NCBI GenBank assembly: GCA_964291415.2
Contig: OZ219918.1
Coordinates: 256,001-320,000 of the forward strand
Origin: Alphaproteobacteria bacterium
GTDB taxonomy: Bacteria > Pseudomonadota > Alphaproteobacteria > SP197
Length of the DNA: 64,000 nucleotides
Direction: 5' to 3'
Made by a program: the position numbers and the translations under genes. The stretch's first letter is position 1, and the number at the start of each line of letters is the position of its first letter. The notes beneath the pieces are model-generated. The model was not told the DNA's origin. It saw nothing but the letters and a program-made list of their open reading frames with translations, and did no database searches. Of the stretch, positions 6,479 to 32,241 are shown in pieces.

Positions 6479-7186
6479 TCAACCCCCTTCTCCTGTTGGA
6501 TGAAGACTCTCCAACCGGTTGAGCCAGTCGGAAAAGTGAGGGCATTGCGTGCACATGCGCTGCAGGCCGATTTCCAGTGCGGCGAGAATACCCAGAAGTG
6601 GTTTCTCATATCCGTCAATCAGAGCCATGATCCGCTTCGACGGCGCTCCTTCCGGCGACTCATCGATCTCTTCCGGCGTCGGGAAGGTGTTCCTGATGTC
6701 CTGCAACCGCGGAGTCAGGTCCGGCCGCTCGATTCCAGTGCCGAACCTTTCGCAGTCGCTGAACAGCAGCGCCTCGTACTCGTGCATCATCACATACGGA
6801 ACGAATCGGCGCGTGTCGAAGCCGCCGCCCATTTCTCCGGCGATGTCTGCCAACAGGGCGTCCTGAATCGACGAGGCTCTGTCGGCAAAGGGACGCTGTG
6901 ACGCTTCCGCACGTCCCGGCCACGCTCCACCACCGCTCTGCGGAAGGCCGTAGTAATCCACCATCGTGGTGACGATGCGGTCCTGATCCTCGTGGAGATG
7001 GCGCACGATGTCCCGTCGCGCAGAGGGCCAGCCTCTGATGCCCCCTCGGTGGTCGCGCTGGCGCGCGTTTCCCATCAACCGCGCCCCGACCAACGAAAAG
7101 CCGCGGTCATAGAGGTGCGGCGCGAGAACCTCGTTGACGAAACTCTCTTCAGTCTGACCTTCGACGTGGACGAGGAGACGTGTCAT
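6479..7186 (-). CDS. DUF4276 family (TOPRIM-like) protein
   Basis: LLVHVEGQTEE, TTMVDYY, HEYEALLFSD, PEEID..PSKR, CPHFSDW; 4-bp overlap with upstream ATPase. Confidence 0.82.
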   Translation of the reverse strand: MTRLLVHVEGQTEESFVNEVLAPHLYDRGFSLVGARLMGNARQRDHRGGIRGWPSARRDIVRHLHEDQDRIVTTMVDYYGLPQSGGGAWPGRAEASQRPFADRASSIQDALLADIAGEMGGGFDTRRFVPYVMMHEYEALLFSDCERFGTGIERPDLTPRLQDIRNTFPTPEEIDESPEGAPSKRIMALIDGYEKPLLGILAALEIGLQRMCTQCPHFSDWLNRLESLHPTGEGG

Positions 7187-8220
7187 GCCTCGGGGGTGGG
7201 ACGCCCACCGAATTCATTCTTCTCCCAAAGTTGCCCGAGGCTGTACTCGTTCAGCCAGTCCCTCAGCCTCTCCGGTTCCAGCCTCGTCAGCTTGGTCGCC
7301 CCGTCCTCCCGATCAGCCACAAGCACGTCTTCCGGGTCGAAGTGATCGAGCAACAAGGGCGACTGTGTGGCGAGAATGACCTGAGTCTCTACGGATGCTT
7401 GTTTGACGAGCGATGCCAGAAGCGTGACTGCGTAGGGGTGCAAGCCGAGTTCCGGTTCGTCCATGAGGATGACGGACGGGCGGAGCGTCGCGGGCAGGAA
7501 CAGCAGCGTCGCGAGGGCGATGAATCTCAAGGTTCCGTCAGAAAGGGACGACGCGTCGAAATAGGCGTCCGACTTCCGATGCCGCCATTCAAGACGGATG
7601 GTGTCTTCATTCAACGCCAAGGGTTCCAGTTCAAAATCGTCGAAGAACGGTGCAGCGAGCCGCACCGTGCGTCGGATCATGCGGTACGCATCGGGGTGCT
7701 TTTGGCGCAGGCGATACAGAACGGCGGCGACGTTCGATCCATCCGCCTTCAGGTGGCGGTTGTCGTTCAGATCGGTCGTTTTCTTCATCGGAGACAACGG
7801 GCCGGTATCCTGAAAATGGTAGCAACGGAACTGACGGACTACGGCGAGTAGAGTCTTGGGAAAACTCCAGTTCTGGTCCCCCACAACAGGAAGCCTTCGT
7901 GCAACAAGCCTGTCGCCTGCAACTGCAATCAACTCTTGTCTGTACACCCTATGTATCTCATTGAATTTTATTTCGAAACTGATTCTCTCTGTGTTCTTGG
8001 CTCCAAAGTGCAGGATCTTGTCCGCTCCACCCGAGCGTACGACATGGTCGTCCACTTCACTGTCGTCACGAAGGGTGGTGCGCAACAGCGCCATGGCGCC
8101 GAAGACATTCGATTTGCCCGATCCGTTGGGTCCGATCAGCACGTTGATCCGGCCGAGACGCAATTCGAGACACCTGATGCTCTTGAAGCCTTCGATGGTG
8201 ATTCGGTCGAGCGCGGGCAT
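7183..8220 (-). CDS. AAA_21-type / ABC-like ATPase
   Basis: Walker A GPNGSGKS, signature LSDGTLR, Walker B ILMDEPELGLHP, ATQSP switch, YSLGQLWEKN tail. Confidence 0.9.
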   Translation of the reverse strand: MPALDRITIEGFKSIRCLELRLGRINVLIGPNGSGKSNVFGAMALLRTTLRDDSEVDDHVVRSGGADKILHFGAKNTERISFEIKFNEIHRVYRQELIAVAGDRLVARRLPVVGDQNWSFPKTLLAVVRQFRCYHFQDTGPLSPMKKTTDLNDNRHLKADGSNVAAVLYRLRQKHPDAYRMIRRTVRLAAPFFDDFELEPLALNEDTIRLEWRHRKSDAYFDASSLSDGTLRFIALATLLFLPATLRPSVILMDEPELGLHPYAVTLLASLVKQASVETQVILATQSPLLLDHFDPEDVLVADREDGATKLTRLEPERLRDWLNEYSLGQLWEKNEFGGRPTPEA

Positions 8221-29299: not shown

Positions 29300-29594
29300 A
29301 TGGTTTCGGCCGGGCTGGCCCTTGCGCCGAAGTCCGAGCCGGACAAGCCCCCTCGAAAGGGTCAGGCCGCCTTCGTTCTGGATTCTTTCGAGGTCGAGGA
29401 CGAATGGTTCGCGCTCGAGTTGGTCGCCTTCCAGGTGTTGTCCGGCGAAGGACCGCCTTCCGCGATCGCCGCGGAAGCAATCGAGACGATCAGGCGCTTG
29501 CGACTCAATGATGAGGAATGCTGTGGTGCGTGCGCCGAATACGCCGAGGATTACTGGCGCGAGGAAATCACAATCGCCGATGTGCGAAAAAATG
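29300..29594 (+). pseudogene. gene remnant interrupted by the tnpB element (continues 30932-30974)
   Basis: VLDSFEVEDEWFALELVAFQV...IRRLRLND...YAEDYW..EITIADVRKN continues as AP..VAR after the element is removed; resembles C-termini of HNH-type proteins (recalled, unverified). Confidence 0.5.
29587..29594. repeat. 8-bp target-site duplication, left copy (AAAAAATG)
   Basis: identical octamer at 30924-30931 flanking the element. Confidence 0.85.
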
Positions 29595-29626
29595 GGGGAT
29601 TGTATACGCAACTTGACAGAATCGAC

Positions 29627-29655
29627 TTGACATCCAATGGTGTTATCGATATGAA
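29627..29655 (+). promoter_or_regulatory. candidate sigma70 promoter for tnpB
   Basis: TTGACA-17 nt-TATGAA, ~40 nt upstream of the ATG at 29697. Confidence 0.4.
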
Positions 29656-29696
29656 TTCGTGTGGTAAATCAGTGCTCGCAATACCGGAGTCCCCGC

Positions 29697-30896
29697 ATGT
29701 CGTCCTCTGTCACCTATCGACAGATCACCTTTCGCCTGCTGCCCGAGAAGCGCAGCACCTGGCGGCGGCTGGAGGCCATGCTCGACACGCAGCGCTGTCT
29801 CTACAACGCGGCGCTGGAAGAACGGATCGACTGCTACCGCAAGACCGGCAAGTCGCTCACCTACTTCGATCAGGCGAAGTCCCTGACCCTTTGCCGCAAG
29901 GCGCTGCCGGACATGGCAGCGGTGCCGGTGGCCATTCAGCGCGGGACGCTCAAGCGCCTCGATCATGCCTTCAAGGGCTTCTTCCAGCGGGTGAAGCAGG
30001 GTGGGGCCGGGTTCCCCCGGTTCCAGGGACGCCGGCACTTCAACAGCCTTTCCGTGGTCTCCGGCGTCAGGGTCGAGGGCAGTCGCCTGCGCATCCCCGG
30101 CCTGGGCTGGCTGACCATCCGCCGCCGGGGCGGCAATCCCTGGCCGCAGGGCACGCCGGTGAGTGCGGTCCTCAAGCGCGAGGAGGGACGCTGGAAGGCT
30201 GTGGTGTGCCATGCGGTGTCGCTGCCGGAAGGGGACGACAACGGCCATGCCGTCGGCGTGGACATGAATGCGGGCCAGGTGGCGACCTCGGACGGGGAGA
30301 TCCTGCGCCTGGAGAGGAGCCGTCGTCTCGAGGCCCGTGCCCGGCGCTACGCCAAGCAGCTGGCGCGGCAGCGCCGTGGCAGCAGGCGGCGGGAGAAGAC
30401 GCGGCGGCGTCTGGCGAAGACCACCCGGCACATGGCCATGAAGCGCCATGACTGGCAGCACCACGTCAGCCGCCGGTTGGCGGATGCGGCGGGAACGGTG
30501 GTGGTCGAGGATCTCAAGGTCCGCACCATGACCCGCAGCGCCAGGGGCACGAAGGAGGAGCCGGGACGTCACGTGCGCTCCAAGGCGGGTCTCAACCGTG
30601 TCATCCTGGAGACGGGCTGGTCGTCGTTCCGGAGAATGCTGGACTACAAGGTTCACCGCGTCATCGCGGTGAACCCGGCCTACAGCAGCCAGACCTGTGC
30701 AGCGTGCGGCGTCACGAGCGCCCAATCACGCAGGACGCGGGACCTGTTTCAATGCGTGGCGTGCGGCCATGCGGATCACGCCGACCTCAATGCAGCGGCG
30801 AACATTCTGGCCTCGGGGACTGAGGCATCTGCGCGGGGAGGTTGCCGGGTTGCCGGGCCTGTGAACCGCGAAATCGATCAGAGGATGGCAGCATGA
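29697..30896 (+). CDS. tnpB: RNA-guided endonuclease TnpB
   Basis: CLYNAAL, GFPRF, RuvC-I VGVDMN, RuvC-II VVVEDL, Zn finger SSQTCAAC...CVACG, RuvC-III HADLNAAANI; D-E-D triad intact. Confidence 0.95.
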   Translation: MSSSVTYRQITFRLLPEKRSTWRRLEAMLDTQRCLYNAALEERIDCYRKTGKSLTYFDQAKSLTLCRKALPDMAAVPVAIQRGTLKRLDHAFKGFFQRVKQGGAGFPRFQGRRHFNSLSVVSGVRVEGSRLRIPGLGWLTIRRRGGNPWPQGTPVSAVLKREEGRWKAVVCHAVSLPEGDDNGHAVGVDMNAGQVATSDGEILRLERSRRLEARARRYAKQLARQRRGSRRREKTRRRLAKTTRHMAMKRHDWQHHVSRRLADAAGTVVVEDLKVRTMTRSARGTKEEPGRHVRSKAGLNRVILETGWSSFRRMLDYKVHRVIAVNPAYSSQTCAACGVTSAQSRRTRDLFQCVACGHADHADLNAAANILASGTEASARGGCRVAGPVNREIDQRMAA

Positions 30897-30943
30897 CGCT
30901 GTCAACTTCTCGATATAAGTCCCAAAAAATGCTCCTTCGTTGC
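30790..30943 (+). ncRNA. predicted omegaRNA (scaffold over tnpB 3' end and right TIR, guide from flank)
   Basis: hairpins gcctcgg-gga-ctgaggc and tggcagc-atgac-gctgtca at the tnpB 3' end; position inferred from known TnpB biology; 5' end unknown. Confidence 0.5.
30924..30931. repeat. 8-bp target-site duplication, right copy (AAAAAATG)
   Basis: identical to 29587-29594. Confidence 0.85.
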
Positions 30944-31149
30944 GAGGAAACCGGACGTTCCAGGACGGCCCTAAGCCTCTTGATCACTGGCGATTTCCCT
31001 AGGCGTTTTGTCACAAACGCGAAGTGAGGATAGAGAACAGATGTCCGCTTTCTTGAAACACTCTCGGAAGAAATAGCTGCCGTCCGCATCGAAAGCTTCG
31101 GTGAGCGATCCGGGTTGGAGGCCACAACTCAAGCCGCGTGTCAGCGGTG

Positions 31150-31989
31150 TCAGCGGAACATCAAGGAGCCGCTGCGTTGTTCGATGGCGTCGGAGACGAC
31201 GATGCCACCGCGAAAACGGTCATATGTAGTATCCAGATAGTGGTACTGGAGCGCTTTCAACTGGCCGCCATAGCGCTGCCGAAGGCCTCCTGCGGCGGGC
31301 TGTACGTGAACATTGCTCACGTGGCCTGTGCAGTAGGCGTGGCAGGCAACGGGATAGAGCAGCGCGGAGCACAGGATATCGCAGACTTGGAGGCCGGCGT
31401 GGTTGTCGCTGTGGCCGAAGGTTGGAAGTTCGACGGTCCGAGGGTACGCCCGGGCAGTTTGGCTGAACTTCTGGGTGAAGATCGAGTGGGACACCTTGAC
31501 GTTCTTGAACTTGTTGCGGCTGTCGGCGATGCATGCGCCGACCTCGTTCACGTGGGACAGATAGTGGTCGAAGTAGGTGCAGATGCCTTGGATCGAAGCC
31601 GTGTAAACGGACGTGGGAACGAAGGGCATTCCGATGCCCTTCACGCTGATGCGCGCGACCAACCGAACGTCGTGGCGCCACAGCATTCCGAAAATGCGGT
31701 CCAGGAATCCGACTGCGTGACGTCGCTGACGAGCGTTGCCGCGTAACGCGTTGTTCCGGATATCCGCCCCCTTGATCTCCGGCAGGATCCTGTCAAGGAA
31801 TCTGGCCGATGGGTACGGCAAGTTGGGGAAGTACCGATACTTCAGGTCGAGGAAATCAGCGGTAAAGGCGAGGAGGTTTGCGGCTTCCGCGAAGAGTCCA
31901 CCGACGACCAGGACGGGTTGGTCGTTAGGCTGCGGCGGGTCGGACAGCGGTCCGAGGTCTCCCGCTTCGTCGATAAAGCAGATTCTCAT
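31150..31989 (-). CDS. DUF3800 domain-containing protein
   Basis: N-terminal CFIDEAG, EIKG, IADSR, C-terminal HSDNHAGLQVCD (QxxD) pattern; start MRIC at 31989. Confidence 0.8.
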   Translation of the reverse strand: MRICFIDEAGDLGPLSDPPQPNDQPVLVVGGLFAEAANLLAFTADFLDLKYRYFPNLPYPSARFLDRILPEIKGADIRNNALRGNARQRRHAVGFLDRIFGMLWRHDVRLVARISVKGIGMPFVPTSVYTASIQGICTYFDHYLSHVNEVGACIADSRNKFKNVKVSHSIFTQKFSQTARAYPRTVELPTFGHSDNHAGLQVCDILCSALLYPVACHAYCTGHVSNVHVQPAAGGLRQRYGGQLKALQYHYLDTTYDRFRGGIVVSDAIEQRSGSLMFR

Positions 31990-32005
31990 TCGGTGCCAAA
32001 AGTGG

Positions 32006-32058
32006 CTATGGCCACCGGATGGTGGCCATAGGGTCTGCCGCCCACGACGGGGTCGGCA
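32006..32058 (-). ncRNA. structured 5' leader (two hairpins) of the DUF3800 gene
   Basis: perfect 11-bp stem ctatggccacc-ggat-ggtggccatag (32006-32031) and tgccg-ccc..ggg.-cggca (32036-32058). Confidence 0.5.
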
Positions 32059-32077
32059 ACAAAGAAGTTCTGTTAGC

Positions 32078-32106
32078 AATATGGGAAATTGAGGCTCGCG
32101 TGTCAA
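32078..32106 (-). promoter_or_regulatory. candidate sigma70 promoter for DUF3800 leader/gene
   Basis: minus strand TTGACA-17 nt-CATATT. Confidence 0.45.
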
Positions 32107-32241
32107 CGGTGCCGGATCTCTTGGTATCATGGGGAGCGCTCTGACGATCGAATGAGTTGGGAATTCCTCCTGCCACCCCGGGCTCAGCCGCGGATACCAT
32201 CGAACACTGCGACAACCCAGCCGCTACTTTCCCTGGCAGCG

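Follow-up and report, generated by a model that had tools for sequence, protein, structure and literature searches.

A stretch of 64,000 nucleotides from the genome of an Alphaproteobacteria bacterium (SP197; contig OZ219918.1 of assembly GCA_964291415.2, positions 256,001–320,000 of the forward strand), which we refer to as the window, contains an element of 1329 bp that, by inspection of the sequence, extends from position 29595 to 30923 (Table 1). The element encodes a TnpB protein, is bounded by imperfect terminal inverted repeats, is flanked by two exact copies of the octamer AAAAAATG and interrupts an open reading frame of the host. An initial description of the window from its letters alone, termed the sequence-only reading in the following, had proposed a unit of this length with 25-bp imperfect inverted ends and an exact 8-bp repeat, all of which were recovered at the positions it had assigned, including the match between both ends at 17 of 25 bases, which was counted by eye and then recomputed. 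The right end (RE) starts two bases past the stop codon of tnpB and overlaps with the 3' arm of the last helix of a conserved RNA structure, and ACTTGACA, which occurs twice in direct orientation in the left end (LE), is a possible candidate for a transposase-binding or promoter element. A consensus scan of the element did not detect any promoter and a scan for terminators was likewise empty. A TTGACA-N17-TATGAA promoter in the left end was dropped, as it failed the criteria of the promoter scan.

Table 1. Features of the element and of its insertion site (positions refer to the window).
Feature	Position	Strand	Evidence
Upstream part of interrupted host ORF	29300-29594	+	77 homologues; alignments stop at insertion point
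G immediately 5' of left duplication copy	29586	+	G in 35/38 left ends
Left copy of 8-bp target-site duplication, AAAAAATG	29587-29594	.	Read from sequence
Left terminal inverted repeat (LE), GGGGATTGTATACGCAACTTGACAG	29595-29619	+	Homology of other copies begins at 29588-29604
Two direct copies of ACTTGACA in left end	29611-29618 and 29625-29632	+	Also in L002, L004
tnpB, 399 codons and stop	29697-30896	+	Pfam, NCBIfam, structure match, dN/dS
RuvC-I aspartate D189	30261-30263	+	GVDMN aligned to GVD motif of solved TnpB-like nuclease
RuvC-II glutamate E271	30507-30509	+	Motif VVEDL
C4 zinc finger C334, C337, C353, C356	30696-30764	+	CxxC...CxxC, residues 334-356; Pfam Cas12f1-like_TNB residues 320-382
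RuvC-III aspartate D363	30783-30785	+	Motif DLNAAANI
Conserved RNA structure resembling omega/right-end RNA scaffold	30810-30923	+	18 right ends aligned
Right terminal inverted repeat (RE), imperfect partner of LE	30899-30923	-	Other copies, sequence
Right copy of 8-bp target-site duplication, AAAAAATG, exact	30924-30931	.	Read from sequence
Downstream continuation of interrupted ORF (..AP SLRGN.. to TAG stop)	30932-31002	+	Frame read from sequence

The protein encoded by tnpB shows the hallmarks of an active nuclease that had been noted in the sequence-only reading, since the residues of the D-E-D triad are all located in conserved motifs and the C4 finger was confirmed. The chosen ATG start agrees with the starts in three other copies (L002, L004 and L005); an alternative GTG is found at position 29661. 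In searches of Pfam, the models OrfB_IS605, which covers the RuvC domain (E 1.1e-12), and Cas12f1-like_TNB, which covers the C-terminal zinc ribbon (E 1.2e-18), both pass their cut-offs, and the NCBIfam model guided_TnpB is matched with 206 bits at a cut-off of 100. The protein also scores with the NCBIfam models of IS200/IS605 TnpBs, but below their equivalog cut-off, and the solved TnpB of ISDra2 is matched over its full length (E 4e-32). All six close copies of the gene are intact and retain 399 codons with dN/dS values of 0.16–0.32, and values of 0.07–0.22 were obtained for four copies from Thermodesulfobacteriota, which indicates that tnpB is under purifying selection. Based on its domains, the catalytic triad and the associated RNA scaffold, we classify the protein as RNA-guided nuclease of the OMEGA type, for which cleavage activity is predicted.

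The alignment of right ends defines an RNA structure of four helices, formed by the pairing of positions 30810–30816 with 30820–30826, 30832–30836 with 30866–30870, 30840–30843 with 30856–30859 and 30877–30884 with 30907–30914. In the 18 aligned sequences, 94.4% of the cells of its 23 base pairs are paired compared to 82.7% in shuffled alignments, with none of 500 shuffles equalling the observed value, whereas controls in which the structure was slid along the alignment reach at most 44%. Ten of the pairs display compensatory changes on both sides. Although a search of Rfam did not assign the structure to any family, its covariation and its location, extending from the 3' end of tnpB into the right end, suggest a putative guide-RNA scaffold, whose transcription and binding by TnpB are predicted. 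In analogy to other TnpB systems, the right copy of the duplication would then provide the first bases of the presumed guide.

From the window alone, the signal of the inverted ends and the duplication exceeds chance only modestly. Among 6728 pairs of exact octamers that are separated by 600–3000 bp, the pair flanking the element has the best inverted match over 25 nucleotides (17), followed by three GC-rich pairs with a match of 16, and in a general repeat search of the window the inverted ends were not among the top 25. The proof of the boundaries comes from other copies of the element rather than from the statistics of the window. Five full copies of 88.5–93% nucleotide identity were identified, whose homology in blastn alignments spans from positions 29588–29604 to 30919–30936. 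In three of them (L002, L003 and L004) it ends within 2–3 bases of 29595 and 30923, and the flanking octamer is different in each of the five. A further copy, whose sequence is distributed over two contigs (L007 and L006), carries an identical octamer at both outer ends. The sequence-only reading had considered that other copies might end at the TCAA(C) near 30902–30906, but none does so, and all continue to the same GGG.../...CCC tips.

Elements with these inverted tips were found in 31 loci, with both ends identified in each case. The flanking repeats of these 31 elements match at 8 of 8 positions in 16 cases, at 7 in four, at 6 in one and at 5 in three, whereas seven match at three positions or fewer. 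As the 16 exact repeats are all mutually different, AAAAAATG is not an invariant part of the element, a possibility that had been raised initially. An allele of the unoccupied site, whose identification had been suggested as a check, was found both at the level of protein and of DNA. For the site in the window, the protein P0001, encoded on a different contig, reads across both flanks with no element between them and aligns to positions 29300–29590 and 30923–31024 in a single chain. At the DNA level, L053 represents the unoccupied site of the insertion in L047 with a single copy of the octamer and, reciprocally, L047 the unoccupied site of the insertion in L053. Their variation between copies and their single occurrence in empty sites define the repeats as duplications of the target. 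The host reading frame in the window is itself a remnant that corresponds only to the C-terminus of a protein family with a length of about 207 residues, and the frame that had been rejoined as ..RKN-AP.. upon removal of the unit agrees with homologues reading ..RRH-AP-FV...

Members of this family of elements are found in Alphaproteobacteria, Gammaproteobacteria, Thermodesulfobacteriota, Spirochaetota and Chloroflexota, and thus in several bacterial phyla. In 30 of the 31 elements with both ends, tnpB is the sole gene (29 with full-length tnpB, and L043). The exception, L051, contains a nested trio of recombinases. In another locus (L040), a large serine recombinase, apparently a nested insertion, is located between tnpB and the right end. 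Deletion derivatives of 372 bp retain the ends, and in L005 the tips have decayed while the reading frame is intact. Copies within one genome are 91–96.5% identical, indicating that their movement was not recent. On plasmids, DNA searches retrieved only short and weak matches to tnpB with the whole element as query and only noise with a 46-base end, and none of four relatives of tnpB inspected after tblastn searches with three TnpB queries (two each from Bosea and Acidiphilium) carried these ends.

None of the 107 open reading frames of at least 200 residues in the window encodes a transposase, with a size limit that would exclude a Y1 gene, at about 140 residues, and tblastn searches with eight IS1595 transposases gave no match in the window. 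Since the element lacks a DDE_Tnp_IS1595 gene with its N-terminal zinc ribbon, it can only be a non-autonomous derivative and not an IS1595 insertion sequence. A cognate transposase was not found in the flanks of 69 related loci either, where the sole IS1595 gene (L020/L017) has different ends. Neither did we find a Y1 or serine tnpA, whose vicinity to homologous tnpB genes had been named as evidence to the contrary, inside the element in any of 38 loci with this end type. In 15 loci scanned for such genes, Y1 transposases are found only beside L034 and L069, which are distant relatives of 33–37% identity without inverted ends.

In contrast, ends of the same type were found on transposons that do encode an IS1595 transposase. 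Members of the IS1595 family typically have 8-bp duplications at their flanks (PMC8101967). A first sample of IS1595 elements showed only a loose likeness to the ends of the tnpB elements, with TAT at positions 7–9, and the close matches came from a motif scan of retrieved loci. Four plasmid transposons carry passenger DNA between ends of the tnpB type: L091 (1869 bp, plasmid p4 of Pseudosulfitobacter), L092 (2885 bp), L093 (3406 bp) and L094 (3413 bp, plasmid pMOC1 of Methylobacterium oryzae). In L091, L092 and L094, the ends enclose an IS1595 transposase confirmed by Pfam (DDE_Tnp_IS1595 and its zinc ribbon), and L093, in which no gene is annotated at this place, matches the element of L091 with 66.5% DNA identity across the transposase gene (query positions 68–966). 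The left end of L091 agrees with that in the window at 12 of the first 13 bases, and the left end of L094 with that of the tnpB element L015 at all 13 (18 of 22 overall), although past the first 13–15 bases the ends of the window element diverge from those of the plasmid transposons. L094 is flanked by an exact 8-bp duplication, and together with seven other IS1595 insertion sequences, which all have 8-bp duplications and show TAT at end positions 7–9 in six cases and TAC in L079, a total of eight transposase-bearing elements display an exact repeat. A 22/22 inverted repeat in L095 (Roseomonas) is of another type and was set aside. This comparison of terminal bases demonstrates that the ends of the window element are akin to those of IS1595-family transposons. 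The assignment to this family, which had originally been guessed from the length of the repeats, is thus backed by transposase genes located between ends of the same type (L091, L094). Transposase genes between matching ends, which the sequence-only reading had proposed to look for, were found on plasmids of other genera, but neither in the window nor in the flanks of the 69 loci.

Taken together, we consider it likely that the element is a non-autonomous shell of the IS1595 type, with terminal repeats of about 25 bp that are flanked by an 8-bp duplication and with tnpB and its RNA scaffold as sole cargo, that an IS1595-family DDE transposase mobilizes it in trans and that its TnpB promotes retention. 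Of this description, the extent of the element, its target duplication and the empty site are established, as are the intact nuclease gene under selection, the conserved RNA structure and the kinship of the ends with those of IS1595-family transposons, and a tnpB gene on its own between IS1595-type ends with the corresponding scar suggests that the element probably moves by borrowing an IS1595-family enzyme. The insertion took place in what remained of a host gene, and in the proposed course of events the element would be mobilized by a transposase encoded elsewhere in the genome. A transcript reading through the right end into the flank would load TnpB, which in turn would cut copies of its own site that are unoccupied or have been vacated, so that the element would be restored by copying or retained, as is the case for IS200/IS605 elements.

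Alternative explanations concern either the mobilizing enzyme or the present activity of the element. We see scarcely any probability for an ordinary tnpB-only element of IS200/IS605 (IS1341 group) that is moved by a Y1 enzyme and whose ends and repeat reflect chance or internal sequence. Although the scores with IS200/IS605 models below the equivalog cut-off, the resemblance to the ISDra2 protein and the Y1 genes adjoining the distant relatives L034 and L069 would fit such an origin, it is in our view refuted by repeats that vary between copies and are single in empty sites, by homology continuing past the TCAA near 30902 and by the same tips in 31 loci without a Y1 or serine gene in any of them. 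Membership in the IS200/IS605 family thus fails on the inverted tips, the variable duplications and the absence of a Y1 TnpA from the element, and membership in IS607 on the inverted ends and the duplication, with the sole large serine recombinase (L040) being seemingly nested. It appears very improbable that TnpB, whose RuvC fold is related to DDE transposases, is itself the transposase of an autonomous element. This would account for tnpB as sole gene in nearly all elements with both ends, for the absence of a transposase from the 69 loci, save one with different ends, and for a one-sided target preference that is unusual for a DDE enzyme. However, the same ends on transposons that encode an IS1595 transposase and no TnpB offer an ordinary explanation for movement, the 372-bp derivatives keep the ends, and we know of no TnpB that has been shown to transpose DNA.

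It is improbable that a DDE transposase from a different family with 8-bp duplications mobilizes the element in trans, even though such duplications are made by several transposon families and the cognate enzyme was not found in the window or in the flanks of the loci. This alternative is opposed by the same-type ends enclosing IS1595 transposase genes in the four plasmid transposons (three confirmed by Pfam) and by the TAT, or in one case TAC, at positions 7–9 of seven more members of IS1595, the only family with which the ends were compared. Finally, the element might be a fossil that was once mobile, with this copy and perhaps its whole close family now immobile and tnpB kept for a function other than transposition that benefits either the host or the gene itself. 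The divergence of copies, which are not near-identical, the mismatches between the ends in the window, the decayed tips of L005 next to its intact reading frame and the lack of a transposase nearby, as judged from window reading frames and tblastn, would all be compatible with such a fate. Conversely, the catalytic residues are intact, unlike those of the known domesticated TnpB relatives that are nuclease-dead, the tips are kept in most copies and exact duplications persist in about half of the elements with both ends, and we thus regard the fossil state as unlikely. It is compatible with the origin from an IS1595 shell and concerns present activity only.

A further property of the insertion sites relates to the G immediately preceding the left duplication (Table 1). 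This near-invariant base is part of the target site and tied to the orientation of the element, as the mirror C is found beside only 17 of 37 right ends (Fisher p 1.4e-5), a one-sidedness that is not expected from a symmetric DDE transpososome. As a tentative explanation, which we regard as possible but rather doubtful, nuclease and DDE transposon might be mutually matched in bacteria as in case of Fanzor1 in eukaryotes, with the G as TAM or as the final TAM base, with a guide that starts with the duplicated octamer and with the loss of insertions whose orientation relative to a G is wrong. With such an arrangement, TnpB would cut exactly the unoccupied or cleanly vacated site. If this was the case, an RNA-guided nuclease would partly shape the target choice of a cut-and-paste family, and the elements would offer a bacterial model for the adaptation of TnpB to transposons that leave duplications.

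TnpB, from which Cas12 descends and which serves as a compact tool for genome editing, has been characterized in IS200/IS605 and IS607 elements, which excise scarlessly. The doubt voiced in the sequence-only reading, whether its association with a DDE-type element is new, was justified, since bacterial TnpBs in DDE elements with inverted ends are already known from other families. The main text of Altae-Tran et al. (2023, PNAS; PMC10691335) describes the DDE-transposase-associated TnpB branches DDE-1 to DDE-6, and a 2026 review names the families as ISL2, IS630 and IS1031 (PMC13565253). The elements described here share with these branches the location of a bacterial TnpB between inverted repeats, the distance of the tnpB 3' end of at most 250 bp from the end of the element and solo TnpB genes between the same ends, for which the main text of PMC10691335 equally proposes mobilization in trans; they differ by the lack of an adjacent transposase in any copy and by a duplication of 8 bp. 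Neither article refers to IS1595 in its main text, on which the comparison is based, and we found no published report of a link between IS1595 and TnpB.

Among other known systems, the tnpB-only elements of the IS1341 group resemble the element in the window in their single tnpB of about 400 codons, their size of about 1.3 kb, an RNA scaffold that covers the gene's 3' end, and the ISDra2-like nuclease. Unlike the window element, members of IS200/IS605 are described to contain no inverted ends, to generate no duplication and to insert 3' of a motif of 4–5 bases (PMC13565253, PMC4810608), and elements of the present kind should not be annotated as IS200/IS605. In eukaryotic cut-and-paste transposons, Fanzor1 (Bao and Jurka, 2013, PMC3627910; Yoon et al., 2023, PMC10711439) is similarly described as TnpB-type nuclease cargo, enclosed by inverted ends and target duplications, with a guide RNA scaffold that overlaps the inverted repeat. 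In contrast to the window element, Fanzor1 is eukaryotic or viral, belongs to other superfamilies, with Merlin, the eukaryotic kin of IS1595, absent from those named, and its proteins are far more diverged from TnpB than the protein in the window. The closest parallel with respect to the ends is provided by the passenger transposons L094 and L091, which share the end type (12–13 of the first 13 bases), the 8-bp duplication and the presence of cargo, but encode DDE_Tnp_IS1595 and no TnpB, whereas the window element shows the reverse.

The 2026 review describes TnpB as rare in association with prokaryotic DDE transposases, possibly since it recognizes its targets too rigidly to suit elements that leave duplications behind (PMC13565253). 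As no transposase adjoins tnpB in the present family, surveys of gene neighbourhoods would miss its link to IS1595. A family with tnpB alone between IS1595-type ends, under purifying selection and with an RNA scaffold reaching into the inverted repeat, bears on this argument and provides concrete material for the question how a duplicated target is accommodated by guide and TAM.

The window element is bounded by two copies of the direct repeat AAAAAATG and harbors tnpB as its only long sense ORF. The 8-bp repeat, the 25-base ends pairing at 17 positions and the resulting unit of 1329 bp were all recovered where the sequence-only reading had placed them. The inverted ends are by themselves weak evidence; among 6728 exact 8-mer pairs located 600–3000 bp apart in the window, the pair of the element ranks best (17), with three GC-rich pairs as runners-up (16). 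In a domain scan, the gene product matches Pfam OrfB_IS605 and Cas12f1-like_TNB, it scores as NCBIfam class guided_TnpB and it aligns over its full length with ISDra2 TnpB of known structure (E 4e-32). The proposed intact D-E-D triad and zinc finger are borne out by the presence of D189, E271 and D363 and of all four zinc-finger cysteines.

Coordinates of features in the window and, where a locus is named, in loci fetched for comparison
Feature	Location	Strand	Description
Direct repeat	29587-29594 and 30924-30931		both flanks; read from window sequence
Left end, 25 bases	29595-29619		read from window sequence
Right end	30899-30923		imperfect inverted partner, 17/25 matches to left end
tnpB	29697-30896	sense	399 codons
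Predicted helices	30810-30914		3' arm of last helix inside right inverted repeat
Interrupted host ORF	29300-29594 and 30932-31002		C-terminal half of family, without Pfam match here
DUF4276 gene adjoining AAA_21 ATPase gene	6479-8220	-	pair looks like a defence-type module
DUF3800 gene	31150-32130	-	directly right of tnpB element
tnpB element, decayed	L005:3899-5227		terminal bases decayed at both ends, tnpB intact (399 codons)
tnpB element, enlarged	L051:224-5153		4930 bp, exact 8-bp repeat AAAACTTG kept; three consecutive tyrosine-recombinase genes nested upstream of tnpB, tnpB frame broken
Large serine recombinase gene (695 residues) in a tnpB element	L040:1366-3453		gene between tnpB and right inverted repeat, probably a nested insertion
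372-bp derivatives (MITE-like)	L045:2888-3259 and L066:3956-4327		both inverted ends and only the tnpB start; no matching duplication seen
Reciprocal empty-site regions	L047:1610-1710 and L053:700-820		
tnpB element of L053	L053:3859-5115		right-hand duplication copy AGTAT instead of ATAAGTAT
Left-flank G, further examples	L047:3914 and L053:3850		
IS1595-family insertion sequence	L020:2568-3618		1051 bp, 8-bp duplication TGTCTTGG
Pseudosulfitobacter plasmid transposon	L091		1869 bp, ends GGCGATTGTATAC...
Sulfitobacter plasmid transposon	L092:1018-3902		2885 bp, tnpB-element-type ends, no duplication seen
Mesorhizobium plasmid transposon	L093		3406 bp, 9-bp repeat; no annotated transposase, outside Pfam scan
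Methylobacterium oryzae pMOC1 transposon	L094:693-4105		3413 bp, tnpB-element-type ends, exact duplication AATCGGAA

A single scan of a species-representative genome collection with the TnpB protein, whose design biases the sampling of related loci toward the query, provided 69 loci from 133 pattern matches. Five full copies show 88.5–93% DNA identity, with homology spanning window positions 29588-29604 to 30919-30936, and in L002, L003 and L004 it ends at most 2–3 bases from 29595 and 30923. The tips (GGGG.../...TCCC) are identical in four of the five copies, whereas those of L005 are decayed, possibly reflecting an element that is immobilized yet still selected. With flanking 8-mers that are unlike one another (ATCCCTTG, AAACGGTT, CAAGAAAG), the other copies settle the boundaries of the window element. 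Relatives at only 28–60% protein identity also end in GGGnnTTATATAC-type tips, with 8-bp repeats of their own. Scoring an end as present if it contains 9 of the 11 fixed core bases of this tip, or if it was shown in earlier copy alignments, we identified both ends in 31 elements, whose flanking 8-mers agree at 8/8 positions in 16 cases, 7/8 in four, 6/8 in one, 5/8 in three and at most 3/8 in seven. Since no two of the 16 exact repeats are alike, further copies with the same ends but other 8-bp repeats do exist, as the initial interpretation would have it. In one additional copy, split over two contigs, AATACTTG is found at both outer ends; seven loci contain the left end alone and six the right end alone, mostly as the contig runs out.

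Unoccupied sites were found at two levels. In Thermodesulfobacteriota, L047 and L053 each hold the empty site of the other in their DNA: where L047 has its insertion and the duplication AAAATAGC, L053 has AAGATAGC once, and where L053 has its insertion, ATAAGTAT is found once in L047. Three bases are missing from the right-hand duplication copy of the L053 element, a gap that would offset a read-through guide relative to the empty site. For the window, the evidence is at the protein level. For the interrupted ORF, 77 homologues were found, most of them about 207 residues long; the window keeps only the C-terminal part, and the ORF had probably become a pseudogene prior to the insertion. The homologues read ..RRH-AP-FV.. 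compared to ..RKN-AP-SL.. in the rejoined window frame, which upholds the claim that removal of the unit restores the frame. In P0001, a homologue of 129 residues on another contig, residues 1-97 match window 29300-29590 and residues 96-129 match 30923-31024; since it spans both flanks, these are adjacent in its genome. Compared at the protein level, P0001 falls one base short of the rejoined window sequence, from which it departs at two junction residues. In both comparisons, L047 with L053 in DNA and the window with P0001 by deduction from protein alone, the occupied allele carries A as the third base of the 8-mer where the empty one apparently has G, a difference that, with n=2, may be due to chance.

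The window element contains no second gene, and no transposase was found among 107 window ORFs of at least 200 residues (111 less one nested alternative start and three in the element region, two of which were domain-scanned whole or in part while the third, antisense, is unscanned) or in tblastn searches of the window with eight IS1595 transposases. Against the 69 loci, the same searches matched only one element, an IS1595-family insertion sequence at L020, which in a Dehalococcoidia genome has a tnpB element 16 bp to its right and whose ends are unlike those of this neighbor. With the L020 transposase as query, we sampled IS1595-family elements on plasmids; the seven with clear ends all show 8-bp duplications and TAT at end positions 7-9, except for TAC in L079. 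A motif scan located tnpB-type ends preceding IS1595 transposase genes, and longer fetches provided the whole elements (L091-L094). The transposases of L091, L092 and L094 contain Pfam DDE_Tnp_IS1595 and a zinc ribbon, while for L093 there is only a DNA match of 66.5% to L091. Passenger DNA is found in all four elements and includes, in L094 and L092, a PIN-domain (VapC-annotated) gene, and none of the four carries TnpB. The left end of the window element agrees with that of L091 at 12 of the first 13 bases and the left end of the tnpB element L015 with that of L094 at 13/13 and 18/22 positions. The tnpB elements thus share their ends with a subgroup of IS1595-family transposons that regularly carry cargo, and together with the 8-bp duplications these matches sustain the IS1595 character assigned in the sequence-only reading. 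A transposase accompanied by matching ends was encountered on plasmids (L091, L092, L094), and neither in the window nor in the 69 loci.

The insertion sites display a one-sided preference. Directly 5' of the left copy of the duplication (window 29586), 35 of 38 left ends have a G, whereas the mirror C follows the right copy in only 17 of 37 cases (Fisher p 1.4e-5; binomial p against 33% G, 3.7e-14). Within the duplication, G never occurs as the first base (0/38) and A or T occupies the second position in 36/38, so that the target resembles a weak palindrome, G-M-W-N4-W-K-C, with a far stronger left half. As the flanking G also occurs in the unoccupied site of L053, it is part of the target. 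It is found in only one of 11 transposase-bearing IS1595 elements, and among tnpB elements the rule extends across TnpB clades sharing only about 30% identity. Two explanations can be offered: either the TAM of TnpB ends in this G, in which case the duplicated 8-mer would form the start of the guide and insertions lacking the base would not be maintained, or the transpososome acting on tnpB elements would be asymmetric.

Six close copies, each with 399 intact codons, show pairwise dN/dS values of 0.16–0.32, and four Thermodesulfobacteriota copies values of 0.07–0.22, suggesting that the tnpB cargo is kept working. In the last ~110 bases of 18 right ends we find four helices with 23 pairs. In this alignment, 94.4% of cells are paired compared to 82.7% in shuffles, with none of 500 shuffles as high; changes on both sides occur at 10 of the 23 pairs, and slid controls reach at most 44%. 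No Rfam family matches the structure, whose position and form are those expected of a TnpB guide-RNA scaffold. In a quick maximum-likelihood tree of 43 proteins of at least 330 residues (27 shorter or partial rows omitted; midpoint root, SH-aLRT support only), elements with these ends fall into clades of 17, including the window (support 99), 12 (support 99) and 3. The rows of the first clade labelled without ends are L005 and L018, the right end of the latter being below the scoring threshold and found in an earlier copy alignment. Sequence records list as hosts Alphaproteobacteria including Paracoccaceae, Gammaproteobacteria, Thermodesulfobacteriota, Spirochaetia and Dehalococcoidia. A Y1 transposase gene is located beside tnpB in two of the 15 loci without a full end pair (L034, L069; 33–37% identical), which identifies classical IS605 elements as the near outgroups.

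Taken together, the observation is confirmed and its interpretation supported. In the simplest reading, tnpB was once the cargo of an IS1595-type transposon whose transposase gene has since been lost, and we infer that the element is mobilized in trans. According to the 2026 review PMC13565253, IS200/IS605 and IS607 elements possess neither inverted ends nor duplications, and TnpB in conjunction with DDE transposases (ISL2, IS630, IS1031) within inverted repeats is credited to Altae-Tran et al. 2023. The literature searched, including the papers that mention both TnpB and IS1595, contained no description of a link between the two, nor under the names ISXO2, IS1016 and Merlin, and nothing relevant on TnpB with an 8-bp duplication or a mobile insertion cassette; IS1595 is absent from the main text of PMC10691335. 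Judged by these literature searches and that main text, the IS1595 link appears to be new. Conversely, Altae-Tran et al. 2023 (PMC10691335) describe six DDE-associated TnpB branches with inverted terminal repeats; certain solo TnpB genes bear the same ends and are proposed to move in trans, and the residence of TnpB in DDE-type elements is thus already known.
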